Notes: a model not told the origin generated them from the letters alone. 64,000 nucleotides of DNA from Candidatus Xenobia bacterium (GCA_035573715.1 DATLZZ010000010.1:246746-310745); one strand, 5' to 3'; shown: positions 52,856-62,639, counted from the first letter of the stretch. Numbers and translations are program-made.

Positions 52856-53836
52856 TCAGGGCGGGGAGAATTGCAGGGCGAAGCGGGCGGCGCCGTAGAG
52901 GGCGGCCTGGTCGTTGAGGATGACGTGGATGGGGATGGCTTCCAGCAGGGGCGCCAGCCGGGCTTTGTCGCGGAAGGCGGCGAGGAAGGTGCCGTCGGTG
53001 AGCTTGGGGAGAATCTTCGGGGCGATGCCGCCGCCGAGATAGACGCCGGCGGTGGCCAGCGCCTTCAGGGCCAGGTTGCCGGCTTCGGCGCCGAAGCATT
53101 CCACCCACAGATGAAGGGCCTTTCGGCAGAGCTCACTGCGCCCTTCGAGCGCGGCGCGCGAGATGGCTGCGGCGGGATCGTCGTCCTTCGAAATCTCCTC
53201 GTGCACCGGCGCCGGTTCGGCCGAGCCGGACTCGCGCAGGTAGTTGTAAATGTTCACCAGCCCTTTGCCGCTGACGATGCGGTCGAAGCTGACGTGATGG
53301 TACTTCCGCAGGAGATACCGTAGCAGGCCGATTTCAATCTCGTTGCGGGGTGCGAACGAGCAGTGGCCGCCTTCGGAGGCCGAGGGCCGGTGCATCTTTC
53401 CGTCCCAGAACAGAATGCACTCGCCCAGCCCGGTGCCGGGCGCGATGAGCGCGGCATTGCCCGTCGCCGGCTTGCCCGGGTGGAGGCAGTGGAGCTCTTC
53501 GGGGCGCAGCGTGGCGATACCGTAGGCTTTGGCTTCGAGGTCGTTGAGCAGGACAACCTCGGCGTCCAGCGCCTGGCGCAACTCGGTGGCGTCCACGGTT
53601 TCCCACGGCAAGTTCGGCGTGACGCTGCGGCCTCCGACGACTGGCCCGGCAATACCGAGGCAGGCGAAAGTCACTTTTTCCCTGGCGGCGTCGAGGAAAT
53701 CCTTGAGGCAATCGCTGAGCCGCGAGTACTCGCGGCTCGGTAGACTCCGGCCGTGAACCGGCCGGCGCGGGTCGCCTCCGGGCGGATAAAGGGCAAGCAG
53801 CGATTTCGTCCCGCCGATGTCGCCGGCGAGAATCAT
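52856..53836 (-). CDS. glk: Glucokinase
   Basis: MILAGDIGGTKSLLAL...CLGIAGPV......TPNLPW......L......V.LLNDLEA.AYG...GTGLGE. Confidence 0.88.
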   Translation of the reverse strand: MILAGDIGGTKSLLALYPPGGDPRRPVHGRSLPSREYSRLSDCLKDFLDAAREKVTFACLGIAGPVVGGRSVTPNLPWETVDATELRQALDAEVVLLNDLEAKAYGIATLRPEELHCLHPGKPATGNAALIAPGTGLGECILFWDGKMHRPSASEGGHCSFAPRNEIEIGLLRYLLRKYHHVSFDRIVSGKGLVNIYNYLRESGSAEPAPVHEEISKDDDPAAAISRAALEGRSELCRKALHLWVECFGAEAGNLALKALATAGVYLGGGIAPKILPKLTDGTFLAAFRDKARLAPLLEAIPIHVILNDQAALYGAARFALQFSPP

Positions 53837-54588
53837 TGACTCACCCCGGCCGGCACCAGTTCAACGCGCAAACCTTTCAGCCGTCCCACCGCCGCGGAAT
53901 CAGTCAGCCAGAGCAGCTCGCCCTTTTTCGGGTGCACCAGTTGGGCGGGCAGATGCCCCGAGCCTTCGACCGCCACCCGCAACGCCGTGGCTTTGTTTTC
54001 CCCCGAGACCAGGAAATGCACGCGGCGCGCGGCGTTGAGCACCGGCAGGGTCAAGGTAATGCGCGCCGGCAGGTGCGGTGGCTGGTGGCTGACCACCCAG
54101 CGCTGCTTCTCGTGCAGCGCGGGGGCGCCGGGAAAAAGTGAAGCCACATGCCCGTCATCGCCCAGGCCGAGCAGAATCAAGTCGAACTCCGGCCAGCCCC
54201 AGCGGCGCCCGAAGTGACGCCGCAGCTCCTGCTCGTACTCCGTTGCCGCCTGCGCCGGTGGCAGGGTAGCGGGAACCGGATGGACGTTCTTAGGCGGGAT
54301 GCGCACGTGCTTGAGCAGCGACTCGCGCGCCAGCTTGTAGTTGCTTTGCGGGTGATCGGGCGGAACCATGCGTTCGTCGCTCCAGAAGATGTGCACCCGC
54401 TCCCAGGGAGTGCGCCGCTGGAATTCGGCCGAGGCCAGCAGCTCGTAGAGCCGCCGCGGCGTGCCGCCGCCGGAGAGCGCCACGCGGAAGGGCCGGCGGC
54501 CGCTGGCTTCCGCCGCCGAGGCGAAGCGGCGGGCCGCCTCCAGACTGAGGCTTTCGTAGTCGGCGCAGATGATGAGCGTGCCGCGCAT
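53833..54588 (-). CDS. pgl: 6-phosphogluconolactonase
   Basis: VALSGGGTPRRLYELLA......W..VHIFWSDERMVPPDHPQSNY....E.LL; 4-nt overlap with glk. Confidence 0.9.
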   Translation of the reverse strand: MRGTLIICADYESLSLEAARRFASAAEASGRRPFRVALSGGGTPRRLYELLASAEFQRRTPWERVHIFWSDERMVPPDHPQSNYKLARESLLKHVRIPPKNVHPVPATLPPAQAATEYEQELRRHFGRRWGWPEFDLILLGLGDDGHVASLFPGAPALHEKQRWVVSHQPPHLPARITLTLPVLNAARRVHFLVSGENKATALRVAVEGSGHLPAQLVHPKKGELLWLTDSAAVGRLKGLRVELVPAGVSQ

Positions 54589-54603
54589 CGGGTGCGGGCG
54601 AAA

Positions 54604-55500
54604 CTACTTCTTCTTGATTTCGTGGCCGCCGAATTCGTGGCGCAGGGCGGCGATGAGCTTGGCGCTGAAGGAGTCCTTCTGGCGCGAGCGGAAGCGGGAA
54701 AAAAGCGCCAGCGCCAGGGCCTGCGCGGGCACGCCGCGCTCCAGGGCTTCGCGCACCGTGCCGCGGCCGTAGCCGGAATCTTCAACCCAGCCCTTGACCC
54801 CGCGCAGGCGCGGGTCTTTGCGGAGCGCGGCTTCGGTGAGCTCCAGAAGCCAGGAGCGGACGACACTGCCGCGATTCCACAGCCGGGCGAGCTGGTAGAG
54901 GTCGAGCTTGTAGTCGGACTGCGCCAGCAGCTCGAACCCTTCCCCGTAGGCTTCCAGCAAACCATACTCGATGCCGTTGTGAATCATCTTGACGAAGTGG
55001 CCGGCGCCGCTGGGGCCGACATGGGCGTAGCCGTCCCGCGGCGCGAGCGCCTTGAAGAGCGGCTCGGCGCGGCGGAAGGCCTCGCGTTCGCCCCCCACCA
55101 TCAGGCAGAAGCCGTGAGTGGCGCCCCAAACGCCGCCGCTGGTGCCGACGTCGAGGAAGTGGATGCCTTCCTGGCGCAGCACGCGGGCGCGGGCAACCGA
55201 GTGGCGGTAGTCGGAGTTGCCGCCGTCAATCACGATGTCGTCGGCATGGAGGTAGGACTCGAGGCCGCGAAGGACGGCGCCCACCGGTCCGCCGGCGGGC
55301 ACCATCAGCCAGACGATGCGCGGCGGCTTGAGCTGCTCGAGCACGCCGCCCAGCGTGGCGGCGCCCCGGGCGCCCTTGCGGGTGAGGGCTTTGACGCGTT
55401 CAGCTTCCTGGTCATAGGCGACGACCTGGTGTCTGGCGTGGAGCAGGCGCGCCACCATTGCGCTGCCCATGCGTCCCAGGCCGACGAATCCAACTTGCAT
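54604..55500 (-). CDS. gnd: 6-phosphogluconate dehydrogenase, decarboxylating (short, GntZ/YqeC-like form)
   Basis: MQVGFVGLGRMGSAMV..L......V.AYD...IDGGNS.Y......A......GI.F.DVGTSGG.WG...G.C.MVGG...GAGHFVKM.HNGIEYG. Confidence 0.9.
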   Translation of the reverse strand: MQVGFVGLGRMGSAMVARLLHARHQVVAYDQEAERVKALTRKGARGAATLGGVLEQLKPPRIVWLMVPAGGPVGAVLRGLESYLHADDIVIDGGNSDYRHSVARARVLRQEGIHFLDVGTSGGVWGATHGFCLMVGGEREAFRRAEPLFKALAPRDGYAHVGPSGAGHFVKMIHNGIEYGLLEAYGEGFELLAQSDYKLDLYQLARLWNRGSVVRSWLLELTEAALRKDPRLRGVKGWVEDSGYGRGTVREALERGVPAQALALALFSRFRSRQKDSFSAKLIAALRHEFGGHEIKKK

Positions 55501-55559: not shown

Positions 55560-55712
55560 TCACGACCCAGCCTTGCCTTTGAGCGAGTCTTTCAAGGAGC
55601 GGAGTTCATCGGCCAGGCGCTTCTGGCGCAACGACAAATTGAGCACGTACCCAATGTGCAGGGCCCAGACAAGCGCGAAGGCGTAAAAGAGATGCTTCAG
55701 GCCGATGTCCAT
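55560..55712 (-). CDS. ccmD: CcmD-like small heme exporter protein (50 aa)
   Basis: Absent from the ORF track. My translation is MDIGLKHLFYAFALVWALHIGYVLNLSLRQKRLADELRSLKDSLKGKAGS*. GGGAGG RBS. One TM helix plus a basic tail. It sits immediately after ccmC, the usual ccmD position. Confidence 0.65.
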   Translation of the reverse strand: MDIGLKHLFYAFALVWALHIGYVLNLSLRQKRLADELRSLKDSLKGKAGS

Positions 55713-55730: not shown

Positions 55731-56420
55731 TCAGGCGCGAACACGGCGATAGAGTTCGTTCAGCTCGTGACTCAGCGTTTCCAGCCGGTAGCGCTGCAAG
55801 AACAGCAGCAAGCCGAGGGCGTGCAGCGCCACGAGGCACCAAATCAGCCCAACCCACATTTCCGGGGCCAGCCCGGAGCCTTCGCCGCCGCCGATAACGG
55901 GCTTGGGGTGCTGGCCGCGAAAGCGGTTGGCGATGTAGACGATGGGCACGTCGACAAAGCCGATGATGCCAACCACGGCCGAAAGCAGGGCGCGGCGGTT
56001 GGGGTCTTCAACGTAGACCCGCAGCATCAGGTAGCCGACGAAAATCAGAAAAAGGATCAGCGTGGTGGTCAGGCGCGGGTCCCAGGCCCACCAGATTCCC
56101 CAGACGGGCTTGGCCCAGAGCGGGCCGGTGATGAGCACCGCAGCACAAAAGATGGTTCCGACCTCGGCGGCGGAGACAGCGACGCGGTCCCAGCCCAGGC
56201 GCCGGGTGCGCAGGTACGCGATGCTGCACACGAAGACGACGAAAAAGAGATTGAACGAAACCACGGCTGACGGCATGTGGATGTAGAAGATGCGCTGCAC
56301 GACGCCCATCGTTTTCTCGGTAGGGACGACGAAAAAGACCTGATAGAGAGCGACCAGCAGCAGCACCAGGGTGGCGGCCACGAGCGCAGGCGTCAGGCGT
56401 TGATAGGTGGACTCGCTCAA
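55731..56420 (-). CDS. ccmC: Heme exporter protein CcmC
   Basis: Trp-rich WWD motif WAKPVWGIWWAWDPRLTTTLI, flanked by conserved His residues (IHMP). Confidence 0.93.
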   Translation of the reverse strand: MSESTYQRLTPALVAATLVLLLVALYQVFFVVPTEKTMGVVQRIFYIHMPSAVVSFNLFFVVFVCSIAYLRTRRLGWDRVAVSAAEVGTIFCAAVLITGPLWAKPVWGIWWAWDPRLTTTLILFLIFVGYLMLRVYVEDPNRRALLSAVVGIIGFVDVPIVYIANRFRGQHPKPVIGGGEGSGLAPEMWVGLIWCLVALHALGLLLFLQRYRLETLSHELNELYRRVRA

Positions 56421-56426
56421 ACGCTC

Positions 56427-57104
56427 CTATTCCTCCACCACGTATCCGAAGAGCAGCCAGCAGAGCAGCGTGAAGATAATATCAAAACCCACCAGTAACC
56501 TGAACTGAAGGCCGGCAAAGGCGAGCGGCAGGTCGGCGAGCAAGGTGGCGGTGAGGTCAACGGTGGCGACCAGCACCGGCACGGTCAGCGGCAGCAGCAG
56601 CAGCGGCAGCATCAGCTCCTGCATACGCGTGTTGGCGCTGACGGCGGAGAACATCGTGCCCAGCGCCGTGAGCCCCCAGGTGCCGAGAAGAAGAATCAGC
56701 AGCAGCGAGCCTGGGCGGTTCCACAACGACAGGTTGAAGAAAAGCCCGAATACGGGCAGCAGCACGAGCTCGGCAATAAAGAGCAGCAGCAGGTTGCTCA
56801 GCAACTTGCCGAGATAGATGGCGCCAGGGTCGGCGGGCGCCAGGCGCAGGCCGGCGAGGCAGTCGTTGGCGGTCTCGCGGGCGAAGCCGCGGTTCAGGCC
56901 GAGAATCGACGCGAAAAGAAACGCCAGCCAGAGCAATCCGCCGGCGATGACGCGCGCTTCGTCGGCCGTCGGCTCGAAGGCGAAAGTGAAAGCGACCGAA
57001 ACCGTGAAGCCGAAGAGCAGCACCCCGGTCAGAACATCCTTGGTGCGCCACTCTGAGAGCAAGTCCTTGCGGAGGATGGCCGCGGCGACCCGCCAGGTGC
57101 TCAT
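56427..57104 (-). CDS. ccmB: Heme exporter protein CcmB
   Basis: 225 aa with six TM helices. ILRKDLLSEWRTKD... Located between ccmA and ccmC. Confidence 0.88.
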   Translation of the reverse strand: MSTWRVAAAILRKDLLSEWRTKDVLTGVLLFGFTVSVAFTFAFEPTADEARVIAGGLLWLAFLFASILGLNRGFARETANDCLAGLRLAPADPGAIYLGKLLSNLLLLFIAELVLLPVFGLFFNLSLWNRPGSLLLILLLGTWGLTALGTMFSAVSANTRMQELMLPLLLLPLTVPVLVATVDLTATLLADLPLAFAGLQFRLLVGFDIIFTLLCWLLFGYVVEE

Positions 57105-57835
57105 CGCGCAGCCGCCACTAGGCGGGCTTTAAGCTCGTCCGCCAGTCCGGGAGAGTTGGGCCCATCGAACAGCACGGCGCCTTTTTCCAGCAGCAGCACG
57201 CGCGAAGCGGGGCGCAGGCTTTCGGCGAGGTCGTGCGAGCTGAGAATGACGGTGCGGCCGCTGCGATGGCAACCGGCCAGCCAGGCGTGAAGGCGCTCGC
57301 GGGTGGGAGCGTCGAGACCGGTGGCGGGCTCATCGAGCAGCAGGACGTCAGGCCGATGCAACCAGGCGCGGGCCAAGGCGAGGCGTTGCTTCAGGCCGCG
57401 CGAGAGGCTGCGAGCACGGCTGCCGGCCCGGTCGGCGAGGCCCATTTCTTCGAGCACTTCCGGCACGCGGCGGGCAGCGTCGGCCAGGCCGTAGAGGCGG
57501 GCATAGAAGTGGAGGTTTTCTTCCGCCGTCAGCTCGTCGTAGAGCGCCAGGTCGTGACCGCAGAAGCCGAGGCGCTGCTTGAAGCTCGTCGGTAGGCGGC
57601 GCGCGGGTTGGTCGTCGAAGAGCAGCTCACCTTCGGAGGGAGGTTGAAGGAGGGCGAGGGTGCGAAGCAGCGTGGTCTTGCCGGCGCCATTGCGGCCGAG
57701 CACGACGAGAAACTCGCCCGGCTCGATGCCGAAGCGCAAGCGATCGAGCGCCACGAAGCGCCCAAAAAACCTGCTGACCGATTCGAGCGTGATTCGAGGG
57801 CTACTTGGCGGCGCGGGAGCTGCGGGCGCTGGCAT
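57101..57835 (-). CDS. ccmA: Heme ABC exporter ATP-binding protein CcmA
   Basis: Walker A GRNGAGKTTLLR, signature LSRGLKQRLALA, Walker B LLLDEP. I start at ATG (complement 57833-57835), which overlaps the upstream gene by 35 nt. The start is uncertain. Confidence 0.88.
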   Translation of the reverse strand: MPAPAAPAPPSSPRITLESVSRFFGRFVALDRLRFGIEPGEFLVVLGRNGAGKTTLLRTLALLQPPSEGELLFDDQPARRLPTSFKQRLGFCGHDLALYDELTAEENLHFYARLYGLADAARRVPEVLEEMGLADRAGSRARSLSRGLKQRLALARAWLHRPDVLLLDEPATGLDAPTRERLHAWLAGCHRSGRTVILSSHDLAESLRPASRVLLLEKGAVLFDGPNSPGLADELKARLVAAAR

Positions 57836-58979
57836 GGATGGCTTGGGCCGCCGCGGGCGGCAACGAGTACAGATAAAACAGGCCGAGCAACAGCACGGCA
57901 AGCGACAGGCCGACAATATACCACTGAGCGCGGTTGGCGGGCTGGGGGACGATGATGACGGTGGACTCCGCCTCCTGCGGGGCGCCGGGCGCGGGTTGAG
58001 CCGAGGCCGACTCGGCCGCCTCCAGCGCGGCGGGGTTGACCTTCACTTTCACGTTCAGCTCTTTCACGCCTTCGATGCGATACACGCGGGCCTGCGGAAC
58101 TTGCGTCTGCTCGATTTCCTTGAGGCCGGGGCCTTGCACTTCGACACTGGCGCGCGGAGCCGCCAGATGTCGGCGCTCGGTCTGGTGCGGGAGCGGGAGT
58201 CGCAGGTCCATCTCGCTGCCGCTCAACGGCAGAACGTAGCTCACCTGAATTTCACTCTCGCCGGGGTAGAGCGGGAAGTTGATGGCGTAGGTGTTGGTTT
58301 GGTCGGTTTCCTGCGGCTGCTGGCGGAGCTGCATTCCGGTGGCCCGAGCCGCGCTGACCTGGAGGTCGCCGACCAAGCCGGGGAGCGTAAAGCGGAAACT
58401 GCCTTCGTCGGGCGCGTAGGTTCGCTTGGGCTCAGAGGTGTTGCGCAGGGCGTAGTACTCGTTGATGCGCATGTGGTCGGGGCGCGGCTCAAGCACGATG
58501 GTCTGGGCTTCGACGCGGATGTCTTCCGGGCGCGCGCCGGTTTCGTAGACCTCGATGTCGACGGTGATGCGGTCGCCGGTGGCCAGCATCGCGGGTTTGT
58601 TGTAGTTCACGCCGCGGAAGGGAACCTGGACGAGGAAGCGCTCGCTGGGATTGGCGGCGACCACGAAGCGGTAGCTGCCGTCGGCCGCCGTAACGGTGTC
58701 GCGCACGGGAACCATCTGGCCGCGGAGAGCGACGAGGTTCACCGACTGGTCGGCCACCGGCTTGCCGGTGGTGGCGTTGATGACCCGCCCGGAAATGTCG
58801 ACGGCGTGAGCCTCGGGGGTCAGGAACAACAGGGCGACGAACACAAGCAGACTCGCAACCGCGCCTCTGGCCGGCGGGGCCAGGCTCCTGCGTGGGGGAA
58901 ATACGAAGCCCGTTTGCCCGGAGGCAGCAGCCTCCGGGCTATGGAGGATGGGCCACGCGCGAGAAAGGTCGTCGCTCAT
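57801..58979 (-). CDS. Carboxypeptidase-regulatory-like (CarboxypepD_reg) domain protein with C-terminal TM anchor, embedded in the ccm operon
   Basis: Signal/anchor AVASLLVFVALLFLTPEAHA. Then ISGRVINATTGKPVADQSVNLV...DGSYRF, a typical Ig-like CarboxypepD_reg motif. C-terminal helix WYIVGLSLAVLLLGLFYLY. Its start overlaps the stop of the upstream gene (TGATG). Confidence 0.65.
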   Translation of the reverse strand: MSDDLSRAWPILHSPEAAASGQTGFVFPPRRSLAPPARGAVASLLVFVALLFLTPEAHAVDISGRVINATTGKPVADQSVNLVALRGQMVPVRDTVTAADGSYRFVVAANPSERFLVQVPFRGVNYNKPAMLATGDRITVDIEVYETGARPEDIRVEAQTIVLEPRPDHMRINEYYALRNTSEPKRTYAPDEGSFRFTLPGLVGDLQVSAARATGMQLRQQPQETDQTNTYAINFPLYPGESEIQVSYVLPLSGSEMDLRLPLPHQTERRHLAAPRASVEVQGPGLKEIEQTQVPQARVYRIEGVKELNVKVKVNPAALEAAESASAQPAPGAPQEAESTVIIVPQPANRAQWYIVGLSLAVLLLGLFYLYSLPPAAAQAIHASARSSRAAK

Positions 58980-59365
58980 CAGGCATTCTCCGAGCGGGGG
59001 AGCTCGGCCCCGCAGGCGCCGCAGAAGCGGTTGTCGGCCGGGTTGTCGCGACCGCAGCGGGTGCAGCGCCCCGGGACGAACACCGGCGCCTCGGCGGCGC
59101 CGCCCAGCTTTTCCATTTCGTGCAGCAGCAGGGCGAGCTCTTCCTGGTAGCGGGCTTTGGTTTGCTGGTAGTCGGCGTCGGAGAGCTTCCCCATACGGAA
59201 TTCGAGGTGCAGGTCGCGCAGGTTATCGTAAAGGACGTCGCGGCGCTGTTCGAGGAACTCGCGGTCGCGCTCCAGCGGGGTCTTCACCCGCACCGGCTCG
59301 GGCGTGAGCCAGAACACGTAGAGCAGGGCGGCCAGCGTGAGCGCGGCGCAAGCGAAGACGATCAT
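58979..59365 (-). CDS. CcmI-N-terminal-like membrane protein with C-terminal zinc ribbon
   Basis: TM helix MIVFACAALTLAALLYVFWL. A helical segment LEQRRDVLYDNLRDLHLEFRMGKLSDADYQQTKARYQEELALLLHE resembles the CcmI N-terminal module. A CxxC...CxxC ribbon (CTRCGRDNPADNRFCGACG) replaces the usual TPR domain. Confidence 0.55.
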   Translation of the reverse strand: MIVFACAALTLAALLYVFWLTPEPVRVKTPLERDREFLEQRRDVLYDNLRDLHLEFRMGKLSDADYQQTKARYQEELALLLHEMEKLGGAAEAPVFVPGRCTRCGRDNPADNRFCGACGAELPRSENA

Positions 59366-59369
59366 CGGG

Positions 59370-59861
59370 CTACTCTTCCAGCTTCTTCATTTCGCGCTCG
59401 AGATTGGCGCGGTAGCGTTCGAGCAGGTACGGGTCGGGGGCGGTAGCCTTGCGCCGCCCCAGCCAGCGCCGGGCGACGTAGTAGACCAGCGCCAGCCCCA
59501 GCAGCAGCGCCACGAACGGCATCACCCAGGCGGTCAAGTTGAATCCTTCCGCCGGGGGCGCGGCCAGGATGGCCGGGCCGAACTCGGCCACCATCGCTTC
59601 GAGAATCTGCGGCTCGCTCTTGCCGGCCGCCAGCCCTTCGCGAATCTTGGCGCGCAGCACCGGCGCCGAGGGACATTGCAGGTGCGGGCAGACCGTCAAG
59701 CCGTAGTTGCAGCCGCACTGGCAGATGAGCTTGTCGGAGATGCGCCGGAAGGCTGCTTCGCCCGCGTCGGCGGGCGCCGGCTGCTGCGCGAACAGGGCCG
59801 GGCCGAAGGCGGCGGCAACCGTCAACGCCAACGCCAGAAGGGTTCTACGCGGCGACTTCAT
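59370..59861 (-). CDS. ccmH: CcmH/NrfF-family cytochrome c biogenesis protein, variant Cys motif
   Basis: Signal peptide, then LICQCGCNYGLTVCPHLQCPSA in place of the canonical LRCxxC. Conserved downstream pattern (LRAKIREGLAAGKSEPQILEAMVAEFGPAIL..PP) and a C-terminal TM helix. Confidence 0.75.
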   Translation of the reverse strand: MKSPRRTLLALALTVAAAFGPALFAQQPAPADAGEAAFRRISDKLICQCGCNYGLTVCPHLQCPSAPVLRAKIREGLAAGKSEPQILEAMVAEFGPAILAAPPAEGFNLTAWVMPFVALLLGLALVYYVARRWLGRRKATAPDPYLLERYRANLEREMKKLEE

Positions 59862-61899
59862 GGCGCTCCTTGGCGGGCTTGCGACGGCGCAGAGGCCGCC
59901 CGGGCTCCGGCGGGCGGCTGGGAACCAGAGCGATGAGCGTGCCCAGCACCATGACGACGCCGCCCAGCCAGACCCACAGCACCAGCGGGTTGATATAGAC
60001 CTGAATGACGGCGCGCTGGTTGTCGTCGCTCATCCCGGAAAACACCAGGTAGATGTCGGCGTTAGGGTGGCGGAGAATCTCCAGCGGCTTCGAGAGGTGC
60101 GGCCAGATGGCCACTTCGGTCGTGGGTTGCTGGCTGGCCTTGTAGAAGCGCCGCTCCGGCTCCATCGTCGCCAGCAGGCTGCCGCCTTTATAGACGTCAA
60201 TGCGGGCGCGGCTGGCGATGTGGTTGTCGGTTTCGTCCTGGTCGATGCCCTGGATGACGAAGCGGTAGTCGCGCACGTTGATTTCGTCCCCGGGCAGCAC
60301 TTCGGCCTGCTCGTGTACGCCAAAGGCGTTGCCAACGAAGCCGATAAAGAGCAGCGCAATGCCGAAGTGGATGACGTAGCCGCCGTAGCGCCGGGTGTTG
60401 CGGCGGGTCAGCTCGACCATCGCCCCCGCCCAGCCCAGCTCTTCCTTCTGCCGGATGACGCGGGCGCCCCGGAAAAACTCCATCGCGATGGTGCCGATGA
60501 CGAAGAAGGCCAGGAAAATGGTCATCAGGGCGTAGAAGTTGCGCGCGCCGAAGAGGAAGGCGACGATGGCGACCAGAGCGCCGAACAGCAGCGGCCGGGT
60601 GAAGTTGCGCTTCAGGCTGTCAAACGAGGTGCGCCGCCAGGCGAACAGCGGGCCGACGCCGGTGAGAAACAGCAGGAACAGCCCGATGGGAATCTGCACT
60701 TTGTTGAAGTAGGGCGCGCCCACGCTGATCTTGACCCCGCGCACGGCCTCCGACAGCAGCGGGAACAGCGTCCCCCACAGCACCGCGAAGCAGGAGGCCA
60801 GCAGGATGAGGTTGTTGAAGAGGAAGCTGGATTCGCGCGAGGCCAGCGAGTCGAGCTGGTTCTCGCTCTTCAGGAAATCCAGGCGCCAGAAAAGCACCGC
60901 GCTGGTCAGCACCAGCAGGCCGGTAAGGAAAACCGAGAAGTAGGGGCCGATGGCGGATTGCGCGAAGGCGTGCACCGAGCTCAGCACGCCCGAGCGCGTC
61001 AGGAAGGTTCCGAAGATGCAGAGCAGGAAGGTGGCGAAGATGAGCACCATGTTCCACACCTTCATCATGCCGCGCTTTTCCTGCATCATCACCGAGTGCA
61101 GGAACGCGGTGCCGGTGAGCCATGGCAGCAGGGAAGCGTTCTCGACCGGGTCCCAGCCCCAGTAGCCGCCCCAGCCCAGCACGGCGTAGGCCCAGCGCCC
61201 GCCGAGCAGGATGCCGATGGTGAGGAACATCCAGGCAATCATTGTCCAGCGGCGGGTGATGTGAATCCACTGCTCGCCTTTGGTGCGGGTGATGAGCGCC
61301 GAGAGCGCAAAAGCAAACGGCACGCTGAAGCCGACGAAGCCGAGGTAGAGCATCGGCGGATGGATGACCATGGCCGGGTGTTGCAGCAGCGGGTTCAGGC
61401 CGCCGCCGTCCGGCGGCGAAAAAATCTGCGGCCCGTGCGGCGTCTGCATGGCGAGCAGCGCGAAGGGGTTGACGACGAAGTTGTTGAGCACCAGGAAAAA
61501 GCCCAGCACCGTCATCAGCATCGCCACCGCGTAGGGCATCAGGTGCGGGTGCGTGCGGCGGTTGACGCTCACCGCCGTGGCCGCAAACAGCGCCATCAGG
61601 CAGCTCCACCACAGCAGCGAGCCTTCCTGGCCCGACCACAGCGCCGCGAACTTGAAGTAAATCGGCAGGGCGCGGTTGGAGTGGGAAGCGACGTAGGCCA
61701 CCCGGAAGTCGTCCCGCAGCAGCAGCACCGCCAGGCAGAACGTGGCCACCACCACCAGGCCAGTCACCGCCACCACGGCCCGCTCGCTGCTCTGTTGCAG
61801 CAGCGGTTTCTGCTTCCAGTGGCCGATCAGCGCCGCCAGAATGGCGTAGATACAAAACCCGAAGGCGAGGAGGAGGGAATAGCTGCCGAGGGCATCCAT
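59845..61899 (-). CDS. ccmF: Cytochrome c-type biogenesis protein CcmF (heme lyase component)
   Basis: 684 aa, multi-TM. WWD-type motif WGGYWGWDPVENASLLPWL. AALWSGQEGSLLWW. Confidence 0.93.
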   Translation of the reverse strand: MDALGSYSLLLAFGFCIYAILAALIGHWKQKPLLQQSSERAVVAVTGLVVVATFCLAVLLLRDDFRVAYVASHSNRALPIYFKFAALWSGQEGSLLWWSCLMALFAATAVSVNRRTHPHLMPYAVAMLMTVLGFFLVLNNFVVNPFALLAMQTPHGPQIFSPPDGGGLNPLLQHPAMVIHPPMLYLGFVGFSVPFAFALSALITRTKGEQWIHITRRWTMIAWMFLTIGILLGGRWAYAVLGWGGYWGWDPVENASLLPWLTGTAFLHSVMMQEKRGMMKVWNMVLIFATFLLCIFGTFLTRSGVLSSVHAFAQSAIGPYFSVFLTGLLVLTSAVLFWRLDFLKSENQLDSLASRESSFLFNNLILLASCFAVLWGTLFPLLSEAVRGVKISVGAPYFNKVQIPIGLFLLFLTGVGPLFAWRRTSFDSLKRNFTRPLLFGALVAIVAFLFGARNFYALMTIFLAFFVIGTIAMEFFRGARVIRQKEELGWAGAMVELTRRNTRRYGGYVIHFGIALLFIGFVGNAFGVHEQAEVLPGDEINVRDYRFVIQGIDQDETDNHIASRARIDVYKGGSLLATMEPERRFYKASQQPTTEVAIWPHLSKPLEILRHPNADIYLVFSGMSDDNQRAVIQVYINPLVLWVWLGGVVMVLGTLIALVPSRPPEPGRPLRRRKPAKERHEVAA

Positions 61900-61904
61900 C
61901 TAGG

Positions 61905-62336
61905 TCAGTAGGAGCTCGATGGCTTCTGTTCCGGCTTCGCGCCCGGCGGCAGCGCCTCGTACTTGGAGGCGCACTTGGCCTGCACCTGCTGGGCGACGAA
62001 CTGGCGCTCCGGCGTGTAGCGCCCGGTGACAATGGCCTGAGCGTTGTCCACAAACGTGTCGGGCAGCGGATCGCGGCCGACGTAGACCACGTCAAGCGTC
62101 TGCTTCTCCTGATGGAGCTGGAAATAGACCTTCCCCTGCTCGCGGCGGATGGATCCGGGCGTGACGTCGCCGGCGACTCGCAGGCGCATATCGTAGGCCG
62201 CGTCGCCCTTGGCATACAGCTCCGGGATGGTGACGTAGTAGGTCTTGCTCTCCTGCACCCCGCTCACCCCCAGCCACGCCAGCACACCCAGGATGATTAC
62301 CGCGCTGCCGATGAACTTGAGATTCTTGGTTCGCAT
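61905..62336 (-). CDS. ccmE: Heme chaperone CcmE, CxxxY variant
   Basis: Start at ATG (complement 62334-62336). MRTKNLKFIGSAVIILGVLAW anchor and OB-fold core (LRVAGDVTPGSI...VYF.L....Q.L.V.Y.G..PDTF......VTG). The heme-binding site reads QAKCASKYEALPP where canonical CcmE has AKHDE.Y.P. The Cys codon TGC is the complement of 61971-61973. Confidence 0.88.
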   Translation of the reverse strand: MRTKNLKFIGSAVIILGVLAWLGVSGVQESKTYYVTIPELYAKGDAAYDMRLRVAGDVTPGSIRREQGKVYFQLHQEKQTLDVVYVGRDPLPDTFVDNAQAIVTGRYTPERQFVAQQVQAKCASKYEALPPGAKPEQKPSSSY

Positions 62337-62639
62337 AGTCGTCGCCTCAGGTCGTCGGACGAGCAAGTGGGCTTCCAGAACCCACACCTGACTATAGACC
62401 GGGCTTTTGCAGACTGTCAACGAAAGTCGGCTGTGGTTTCAATGTGTTGGCGCCGTCTGGATGAGCCGCAAGGTTGGTGAAGGCCTCCCTCACCCCGCCT
62501 CCCTGAGGCTACCTGCGGTTTTTCTCAACAACGTCGGGCAAAAGTCGCAGGGAGGCCAGCCGACCCGCGCCTCGAGAAATAACGCCGTAGCTCCCAGGCT
62601 GCTGCCTGGAGGCAGAGCATTCTCTCAGGGCGCGCCCAG

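Follow-up and report, generated by a model that had tools for sequence, protein, structure and literature searches.

In the textbook model organisms, as in the E. coli operon, canonical CcmH goes together with a CcmE of the His type. The original definition of the variant System I*, given in 2006, reportedly included the absence of CcmH. Stevens et al., who use the name System I* in their 2011 review, no longer take the absence of CcmH as defining (PMC3601427). They place the Cys-type CcmE in delta-proteobacteria, Chloroflexi, and Firmicutes, with the motif CPSKY in 25 of 36 genomes, and report CcmH in about one-third of the bacteria that have a Cys-type CcmE (PMC3601427). Cytochromes are matured in E. 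coli by a Desulfovibrio operon that has neither CcmH nor CcmG, and the CcmE of D. desulfuricans binds haem covalently through its Cys (PMC3601427). In M. acetivorans, the changes C120A and C120H both abolish holo-CcmE and holocytochromes, and in E. coli CcmE the change H130C gives a protein that binds haem and does not pass it on (PMC9084895). In work on the D. vulgaris protein cited in PMC3884852, ferric haem was reportedly bound non-covalently in vitro via C127, so that a thioether is likely in these systems and neither universal nor certain. Finally, the genome paper of Geoglobus ahangari mentions in passing CcmH-like proteins of archaea (Archaeoglobales) that lack LRCXXC and have LX[S,N]C[E,D,H]C (PMC4600277). 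They set a precedent for a CcmH of the CxC type next to a CcmE of the Cys type.

How haem leaves CcmE and is ligated to the apocytochrome is the step of System I that is still understood least. The question is all the sharper for Cys-type systems, since a thioether would be expected to resist cleavage. Here, we describe a Cys-type ccm operon found in a 64-kb stretch of bacterial DNA (the window).

A Cys-type CcmE at the head of a ccm operon

The gene ccmE (61905..62336, minus strand) encodes a haem chaperone of 143 aa when its start is taken as the ATG at 62336, which gives the length of the closest database homologues. The protein matches Pfam PF03100 with 80.6 bits (cutoff 24.6). It scores below the cutoff of every one of the NCBIfam CcmE equivalog models, and is thus a divergent member of the family. 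Its AlphaFold2 (AF2) model (pLDDT 80) has a transmembrane (TM) helix at residues 4-26, a beta-barrel at 32-121, and a disordered, low-confidence tail that starts at C122. The best Foldseek matches are the CcmE structures 8ce8_E, 1lm0, and 1sr3. The predicted architecture is therefore that of an N-terminal membrane anchor, an OB-fold barrel, and a flexible C-terminal tail.

The original prediction was that the haem-binding His of the HxxxY motif is replaced by Cys in this protein, and the alignments bear it out. The motif CASKY (C122 to Y126; 61959..61973, minus strand) reads TGC GCC TCC AAG TAC from 61973 to 61959, with the Cys codon at 61973-61971 and the Tyr codon at 61961-61959. The His of canonical System I (His130 in E. 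coli) is absent and Cys122 stands in its place. This placement was obtained in three ways. A phmmer search against PDB chains, which also matched the solved Shewanella CcmE chain, sets the E. coli segment 'vlakHdenY' opposite 'vqakCaskY' (8ce8_E, E=6e-7). A global pairwise alignment with E. coli K-12 CcmE pairs H130 with C122 and Y134 with Y126, and a MAFFT alignment with 13 other CcmEs gives the same correspondence. A misalignment, or the use of a nearby His as ligand, had been named beforehand as grounds for giving up the assignment. Both are excluded by the agreement of the three independent alignments and by the variability of H75, the lone His of a protein whose lone Cys is C122. When the window CcmE was aligned with 119 homologues (55-94% identity), C122 and Y126 were kept in 120/120 sequences, position 75 varied (H in 56, Y in 53, R in 6, K in 4), and the window protein has no conserved His. 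A second, His-type ccmE elsewhere in the genome, with this copy non-functional, had also been listed in advance as a reason to doubt the assignment, and no other CcmE-like ORF was found in the 64-kb window. Since changing TGC into a His codon (CAY) takes two base changes, sequencing error is not a sensible explanation either.

The gene ccmE is the first of nine genes on the same strand, which overlap or are separated by gaps of at most 18 nt and together span about 6.8 kb. Their order is ccmE, ccmF, a ccmH-like gene, a CcmI-like/Zn-ribbon gene, a beta-sandwich gene, ccmA, ccmB, ccmC, and ccmD. A putative promoter, TTGACA-18-TATAGT (62391..62420, minus strand), precedes the ATG of ccmE by about 55 nt and was recognised purely by its match to the sigma-70-like consensus (11/12). 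The haem lyase subunit CcmF (684 aa; 59845..61899, minus strand) matches the Pfam families CcmF_C (230.7 bits) and Cytochrom_C_asm (124.4 bits). When mapped against E. coli CcmF, it has an intact WWD motif (WGGYWGWD) and keeps all four His residues, with H180, H268, H310, and H511 corresponding to H173, H261, H303, and H491. The remaining ccm genes are also on the minus strand. For the ABC ATPase gene ccmA (57101..57835; Pfam ABC_tran), we adopted the start called on a public contig of identical sequence, where the product has 244 aa. The gene ccmB (56427..57104) matches Pfam CcmB (PF03379, 109.5 bits). The product of ccmC (55731..56420; Pfam Cytochrom_C_asm), mapped on E. coli CcmC, has the WWD motif WGIWWAWD and the haem-ligand residues H48 and H171 (E. 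coli H60 and H184). The last gene, ccmD (55560..55712), encodes 50 aa of an alternative CcmD family (NCBIfam TIGR04391, CcmD_alt_fam; 28.6 bits, cutoff 24). Pfam and NCBIfam matches, together with the mapping of residues, thus agree with the earlier proposal that a Cys-type ccmE, ccmF, a CcmH-family gene, and ccmABCD are joined in one operon.

The operon shows no sign of decay, and CcmF and CcmC retain all their catalytic residues. One could suppose that ccmE itself is decaying or non-functional, its His having been lost by mutation. Nothing beyond the missing His speaks for this. The constancy of C122 and Y126 among homologues, the finding of Cys-type CcmE in 95 loci from many phyla (see below), and the integrity of the operon and of its catalytic residues make it extremely improbable.

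Neither a CcmG-like ORF nor a c-type cytochrome gene was found in the 64-kb window, and a CcmG-like ORF was present in just 3 of 160 related loci. The flanking genes are housekeeping genes. A saccharopine-dehydrogenase-like gene lies upstream, and rpsB-tsf-pyrH-frr are found farther on downstream. Immediately downstream of the operon, at 52856-55500 on the same (minus) strand and after a gap of 60 nt from ccmD, are genes for a short-form 6-phosphogluconate dehydrogenase, a 6-phosphogluconolactonase, and a glucokinase. These sugar-phosphate genes may be co-transcribed with the ccm operon.

A CcmH with a multi-cysteine motif

The ccmH-family gene (59370..59861, minus strand) encodes a protein of 163 aa with a signal peptide, a periplasmic three-helix domain, a TM helix, and a cytoplasmic tail. 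It matches PF03918 with 73.4 bits (cutoff 25) and the CcmH structures 2kw0 and 2hl7 by sequence with E of about 3e-3. In the AF2 model (pLDDT 86), the helices are at residues 33-44, 65-78, and 83-94, and the TM helix is at 109-136. The sole confident Foldseek matches are again 2hl7 and 2kw0 (prob 1.0, TMt 0.69/0.65). The CcmH of the operon thus has a canonical fold; its alignment indicates that it is itself a non-canonical member of the family, a point that had previously been missed. The canonical 'LRCpkCqn' falls opposite 'LICqCgCn', there is no Cys at i+3, and LRCxxC is absent. In place of the canonical CxxC, the loop carries a five-Cys motif, CQCGCNYGLTVCPHLQC (C47, C49, C51, C58, H60, C63; 59673..59723, minus strand), with the pattern CxCxC-x6-CxHxxC.

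The pattern CxCxC-x6-C-x4-C is common to 116 of 120 homologues retrieved from a word-indexed search. When 1.84 billion representatives were searched exhaustively with HMMER, 5327 clusters were found at E<=1e-3 and 1034 at E<=1e-10, which puts the size of the multi-Cys family at about 1000 clusters when sequences are clustered at 50% identity. Among 147 newly returned representatives, 145 have at least four Cys in the loop and 104 have the exact spacing CxCxC-x6-C-x4-C; the minor variants include CxCxxC, CxCx3C, and loops that end in ...CxC. Judging from these alignments, the motif is a family trait of this CcmH and not a quirk of one copy. A description of a bacterial multi-Cys CcmH family, or of its strict pairing with Cys-type CcmE, was not found in the literature searched.

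The sequence 'SPRRTLLAL' in the window CcmH led us to consider export by the Tat pathway. We rejected this because, upon inspection, the aligned homologues do not share the twin-arginine.

The Cys cluster could bind a metal (Zn, Cu, or Fe-S) in a structural or redox role instead of acting as a dithiol/disulfide centre. Five Cys and a nearly invariant His within 17 residues would suit such a site, an odd number of conserved Cys fits poorly with disulfides alone, and the loop is modelled confidently (pLDDT about 88). However, the His is replaced in many members of the family, for example in those with CPMLRC and CEC endings, and the distance from the second Cys to the third is not constant (C1C1C, C1C2C, C1C3C). 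Moreover, the lack of conservation of the twin-arginine-like signal means that cofactor-loaded export is not indicated. We therefore regard a metal site as unlikely.

The CcmF and CcmH of the operon also raise the question of a dedicated lyase, analogous to NrfEFG and devoted to an unusual haem motif instead of general maturation, because CcmF scores on NrfE models and CcmH scores weakly on the NrfF model. These NCBIfam scores are far under the cutoffs (433 vs 927 for TIGR03145 and 30.8 vs 159.2 for TIGR03147). The genomic context also argues against this explanation, since the operon has its own ccmABCDE and neither nrfA nor a cytochrome gene is nearby. We rejected it as very improbable.

The CcmI-like and beta-sandwich genes

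Between ccmH and ccmA are two genes on the minus strand. The first (58979..59365) encodes a small CcmI-like membrane protein of 128 aa that starts with a TM helix, continues with a helical segment resembling the N-terminus of CcmI, and ends in a zinc ribbon (Pfam Zn_Ribbon_1). It has one TM helix and lacks the second one of CcmI, and a Pfam search gave no match to the TPR domain that CcmI has in the periplasm. Its match to TIGR03142, the model of the TM/leucine-zipper-like N-domain of CcmI, is weak (E=0.0024; 18.2 bits, under the cutoff of 29.3). The CcmI-like proteins of the 80 genome loci described below share the recurring motif 'vYeNLrDLefEyrmGKLs..DY', and the zinc ribbon is present in 0-3 copies in homologues from other phyla. 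The second gene (57801..58979) encodes an uncharacterised protein of 392 aa with an N-terminal CarboxypepD_reg/transthyretin-like beta-sandwich (Pfam PF13620) and a C-terminal TM helix. Profile searches of PDB and Pfam returned generic transthyretin/Ig-like matches for this protein and no informative relative.

Distribution of the cassette and co-occurrence of its components

We searched one genome per GTDB species with the CcmH alignment as query, which identified 482 relatives, and kept the best 80 loci. These are found in Acidobacteriota/Terriglobia, Chloroflexota/Dehalococcoidia/Anaerolineae, Binatia, Latescibacterota, Krumholzibacteriia, Thermodesulfobacteriota, Myxococcales, Ignavibacteria, Spirochaetes, Gemmatimonas, Nitrospirota, and Actinomycetota. 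The order that recurs across the best 80 loci is ccmE-ccmF-ccmH-(ccmI-like)-(beta-sandwich)-ccmABC(D). Within this set of the best 80 of 482 relatives, CcmH is multi-Cys in 80/80, a CcmI-like homologue follows ccmH in 79/80, and a beta-sandwich gene separates the ccmI-like gene from ccmA in 48/80. A detectable ccmE is present in 64 of these 80 loci and is of the Cys type in 64/64, with the pattern C[AP][ST][KR][YF].

A second scan, of metagenomes, was centred on the Cys-type CcmE and provided another 80 loci. A CcmH ORF is present in 31 of them, the other 49 being mostly contigs too short to include ccmH; it is multi-Cys in 31/31 and has LRCxxC in 0/31. In both samples (64/64 and 31/31), the multi-Cys protein is thus the sole form of CcmH that accompanies a Cys-type CcmE, although these loci were picked by their similarity to the query proteins and the counts ignore kinship. 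It appears to be the normal partner of bacterial Cys-type CcmE.

These results change the reading of the locus. The presence of CcmH in a Cys-type operon had been taken as a possible sign of an intermediate, or of a distinct flavour of the pathway. This interpretation is not supported: the published frequency of about one-third (PMC3601427) means that the combination is not an intermediate, and ccmE(Cys)-ccmF-ccmH is the layout of nearly every surveyed bacterial Cys-type locus with adequate flanks, in more than 10 phyla. The window locus has a CcmH-family gene and falls outside the 2006 definition of System I* in this respect. The suggestion that it represents a different lineage stands weakly, in that Acidobacteriota are outside the 2011 list but these proteins already carry the names CcmE and CcmH in public records. 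In summary, the pairing of a Cys-type CcmE with CcmH is common and already reported, and the locus adds a soil-bacterial phylum to a picture that is unchanged.

The taxonomic label of the sequence deserves a comment. A CcmH identical to that of the window is labelled 'Candidatus Xenobia bacterium' at NCBI, of the phylum Vulcanimicrobiota, and the close relatives of CcmE and CcmH (up to 87-94% identity) are all labelled Acidobacteriota or Terriglobia. The conflict may reflect a mis-binned or mislabelled MAG.

Some loci showed peculiarities of their own. In one metagenome contig (Ga0154808_148; L118:3574-3999, plus strand), a second CcmE-like ORF lies just upstream of a normal Cys-type ccmE. It matches E. 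coli CcmE with E=2.7e-9 (phmmer), and its last residues, '...KPASWCSVCH', contain a CxxCH motif for c-type haem attachment in the position expected for the [HC]xxxY tail. An Actinomycetota MAG (L069:7051-7969) has two overlapping or tandem Cys-type CcmE-like ORFs upstream of ccmF, with the motifs VLVKCPSKYLP and LLAKCPSKYQA. A contig labelled 'uncultured Enterobacteriaceae bacterium' (CAZCWX010000683.1) carries a System I* operon with a CcmE of motif MTSCPSKY and a multi-Cys CcmH. This operon is typical of the Binatia/delta-proteobacterial clade, and the taxonomic label is probably wrong.

Possible co-inheritance or co-adaptation

Two long metagenome loci, L085 and L161, have the order ccmE-ccmF-ccmAB(C) and no ccmH within 10 kb. 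Their CcmE motif is MTKCPSKY, as in Desulfovibrio, and they probably represent the Desulfovibrio-type arrangement. In a rough neighbour-joining tree of CcmF rooted on E. coli, they branch below all the loci that bear CcmH. The subtypes of the CcmE motif (QAKCASKY, TSCPSKY, and [AP]KCPSKY) track the clades of this tree, and the window falls in the QAKCASKY clade. This suggests that the cassette evolves as a unit.

The association of the two proteins could nevertheless result from functional co-adaptation and not from shared ancestry, if a multi-Cys CcmH were needed because CcmE uses Cys. The extra thiols might resolve the thioether between CcmE Cys and haem, or the protein might merge the reducing roles of CcmH and of the missing CcmG. 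In agreement with this idea, the association is strict both ways in our samples, with no canonical CcmH beside a Cys-type CcmE; CcmG-like ORFs are almost absent from the related loci and none is in the window; the five Cys are conserved over the roughly 1000 clusters of the family; and E. coli CcmE with H130C is unable to hand haem to the canonical CcmFH (PMC9084895). However, Desulfovibrio and archaeal Cys-type systems work without CcmH (PMC3601427, PMC9084895), which means that CcmH is not generally needed for the release of haem from a Cys-type CcmE. The two long loci also lack ccmH, and the motif subtypes track the CcmF phylogeny, as plain co-inheritance predicts. On balance, co-adaptation is rather doubtful. 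We prefer to explain the pairing of CcmH and CcmE by shared descent, with the E-F-H-I(-X)-ABCD cassette as one Ccm lineage, because L085 and L161 fall outside the ccmH-bearing clade of the CcmF tree and because the motif subtypes follow that tree.

Probable function of the operon

The gene identities, residue conservation, synteny, and co-occurrence observed here are best explained if this operon encodes a working System I* for the maturation of c-type cytochromes in an Acidobacteriota-like bacterium, an explanation to which we give a probability of about 0.8. CcmABCD would load haem onto the membrane-anchored CcmE. There, C122 would replace His130 and hold a vinyl group of haem, most probably by a thioether bond, and Y126 would take the part of Tyr134 and serve as iron ligand. 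CcmF, whose b-haem and WWD ligands are intact, would then, with the variant CcmH and the small CcmI-like protein, transfer haem to the CxxCH motifs of the apocytochrome. By analogy with the results in D. desulfuricans and M. acetivorans, the Cys should be required for the formation of haem-bound CcmE. The covalent chemistry between haem and C122 in this host, and the involvement of the multi-Cys CcmH, are what we infer from these comparisons.

What is added here to previous descriptions is the multi-Cys CcmH subfamily, its pairing with the Cys-type CcmE, the linked gene for a truncated CcmI-like protein, and, often, the beta-sandwich protein. Most bacterial Cys-type systems, as sampled here, have a distinct multi-Cys CcmH and a truncated CcmI-like partner. 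One may speculate that the multi-Cys CcmH, the zinc-ribbon mini-CcmI, and the beta-sandwich protein form an undescribed module for the handling of apocytochrome and haem that co-evolved with the Cys-type CcmE, even if we find this rather unlikely. Were it the case, the Cys cluster would have a chemistry beyond that of the classical CcmH and CcmG: its thiols could assist in freeing haem from the thioether on CcmE, or it could act as a self-contained redox relay in place of CcmG or as a metal centre. As a modest lead, it is the multi-Cys CcmH of this locus that merits testing. The operon offers concrete residues for mutation and could be tested in E. coli like the Desulfovibrio operon.

Comparison with known systems

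The closest described systems are the System I* of Desulfovibrio desulfuricans and D. vulgaris (Allen et al. 2006 and Goddard et al. 2010, as reviewed in PMC3601427), which share with the window a CcmE with Cys-x3-Tyr, CcmABCD, CcmF, a CcmI-like protein, and the lack of a linked CcmG. The window motif is CASKY, whereas the majority motif is CPSKY. The window operon has a CcmH-family gene and the Desulfovibrio operon has none. The window also differs from Desulfovibrio in the CcmI-like protein, which has 128 aa, a single TM helix, a zinc ribbon, and no TPR, in the extra beta-sandwich gene, and in the phylum.

Among archaea, the CcmABCEF system of M. acetivorans (PMC9084895) also has a Cys-type CcmE, whose Cys is required there for the attachment of haem. 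Archaea lack CcmD, CcmH, and CcmI and have scattered genes, whereas the window has variants of all of these in one operon. The CcmH-like proteins of Geoglobus and Ferroglobus (PMC4600277), which we liken to the window CcmH by description, from a remark in a genome paper, lack LRCXXC, contain Cys-x-Cys, adjoin ccmF, and occur in organisms with a Cys-type CcmE. They differ in being archaeal and in having two copies that flank a duplicate ccmF.

With respect to the canonical System I of E. coli and Pseudomonas (8ce8, 2hl7, 2kw0), His130 is replaced by Cys, the CxxC of CcmH is replaced by CxCxC-x6-CxHxxC, the operon is without ccmG, and its genes run E-F-H-I-X-A-B-C-D where the canonical order is A-B-C-D-E-F-G-H. 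What the window shares with the canonical systems is the fold of CcmE, that of the periplasmic domain of CcmH, the WWD motifs and His residues of CcmC and CcmF, and the overall logic of the pathway.
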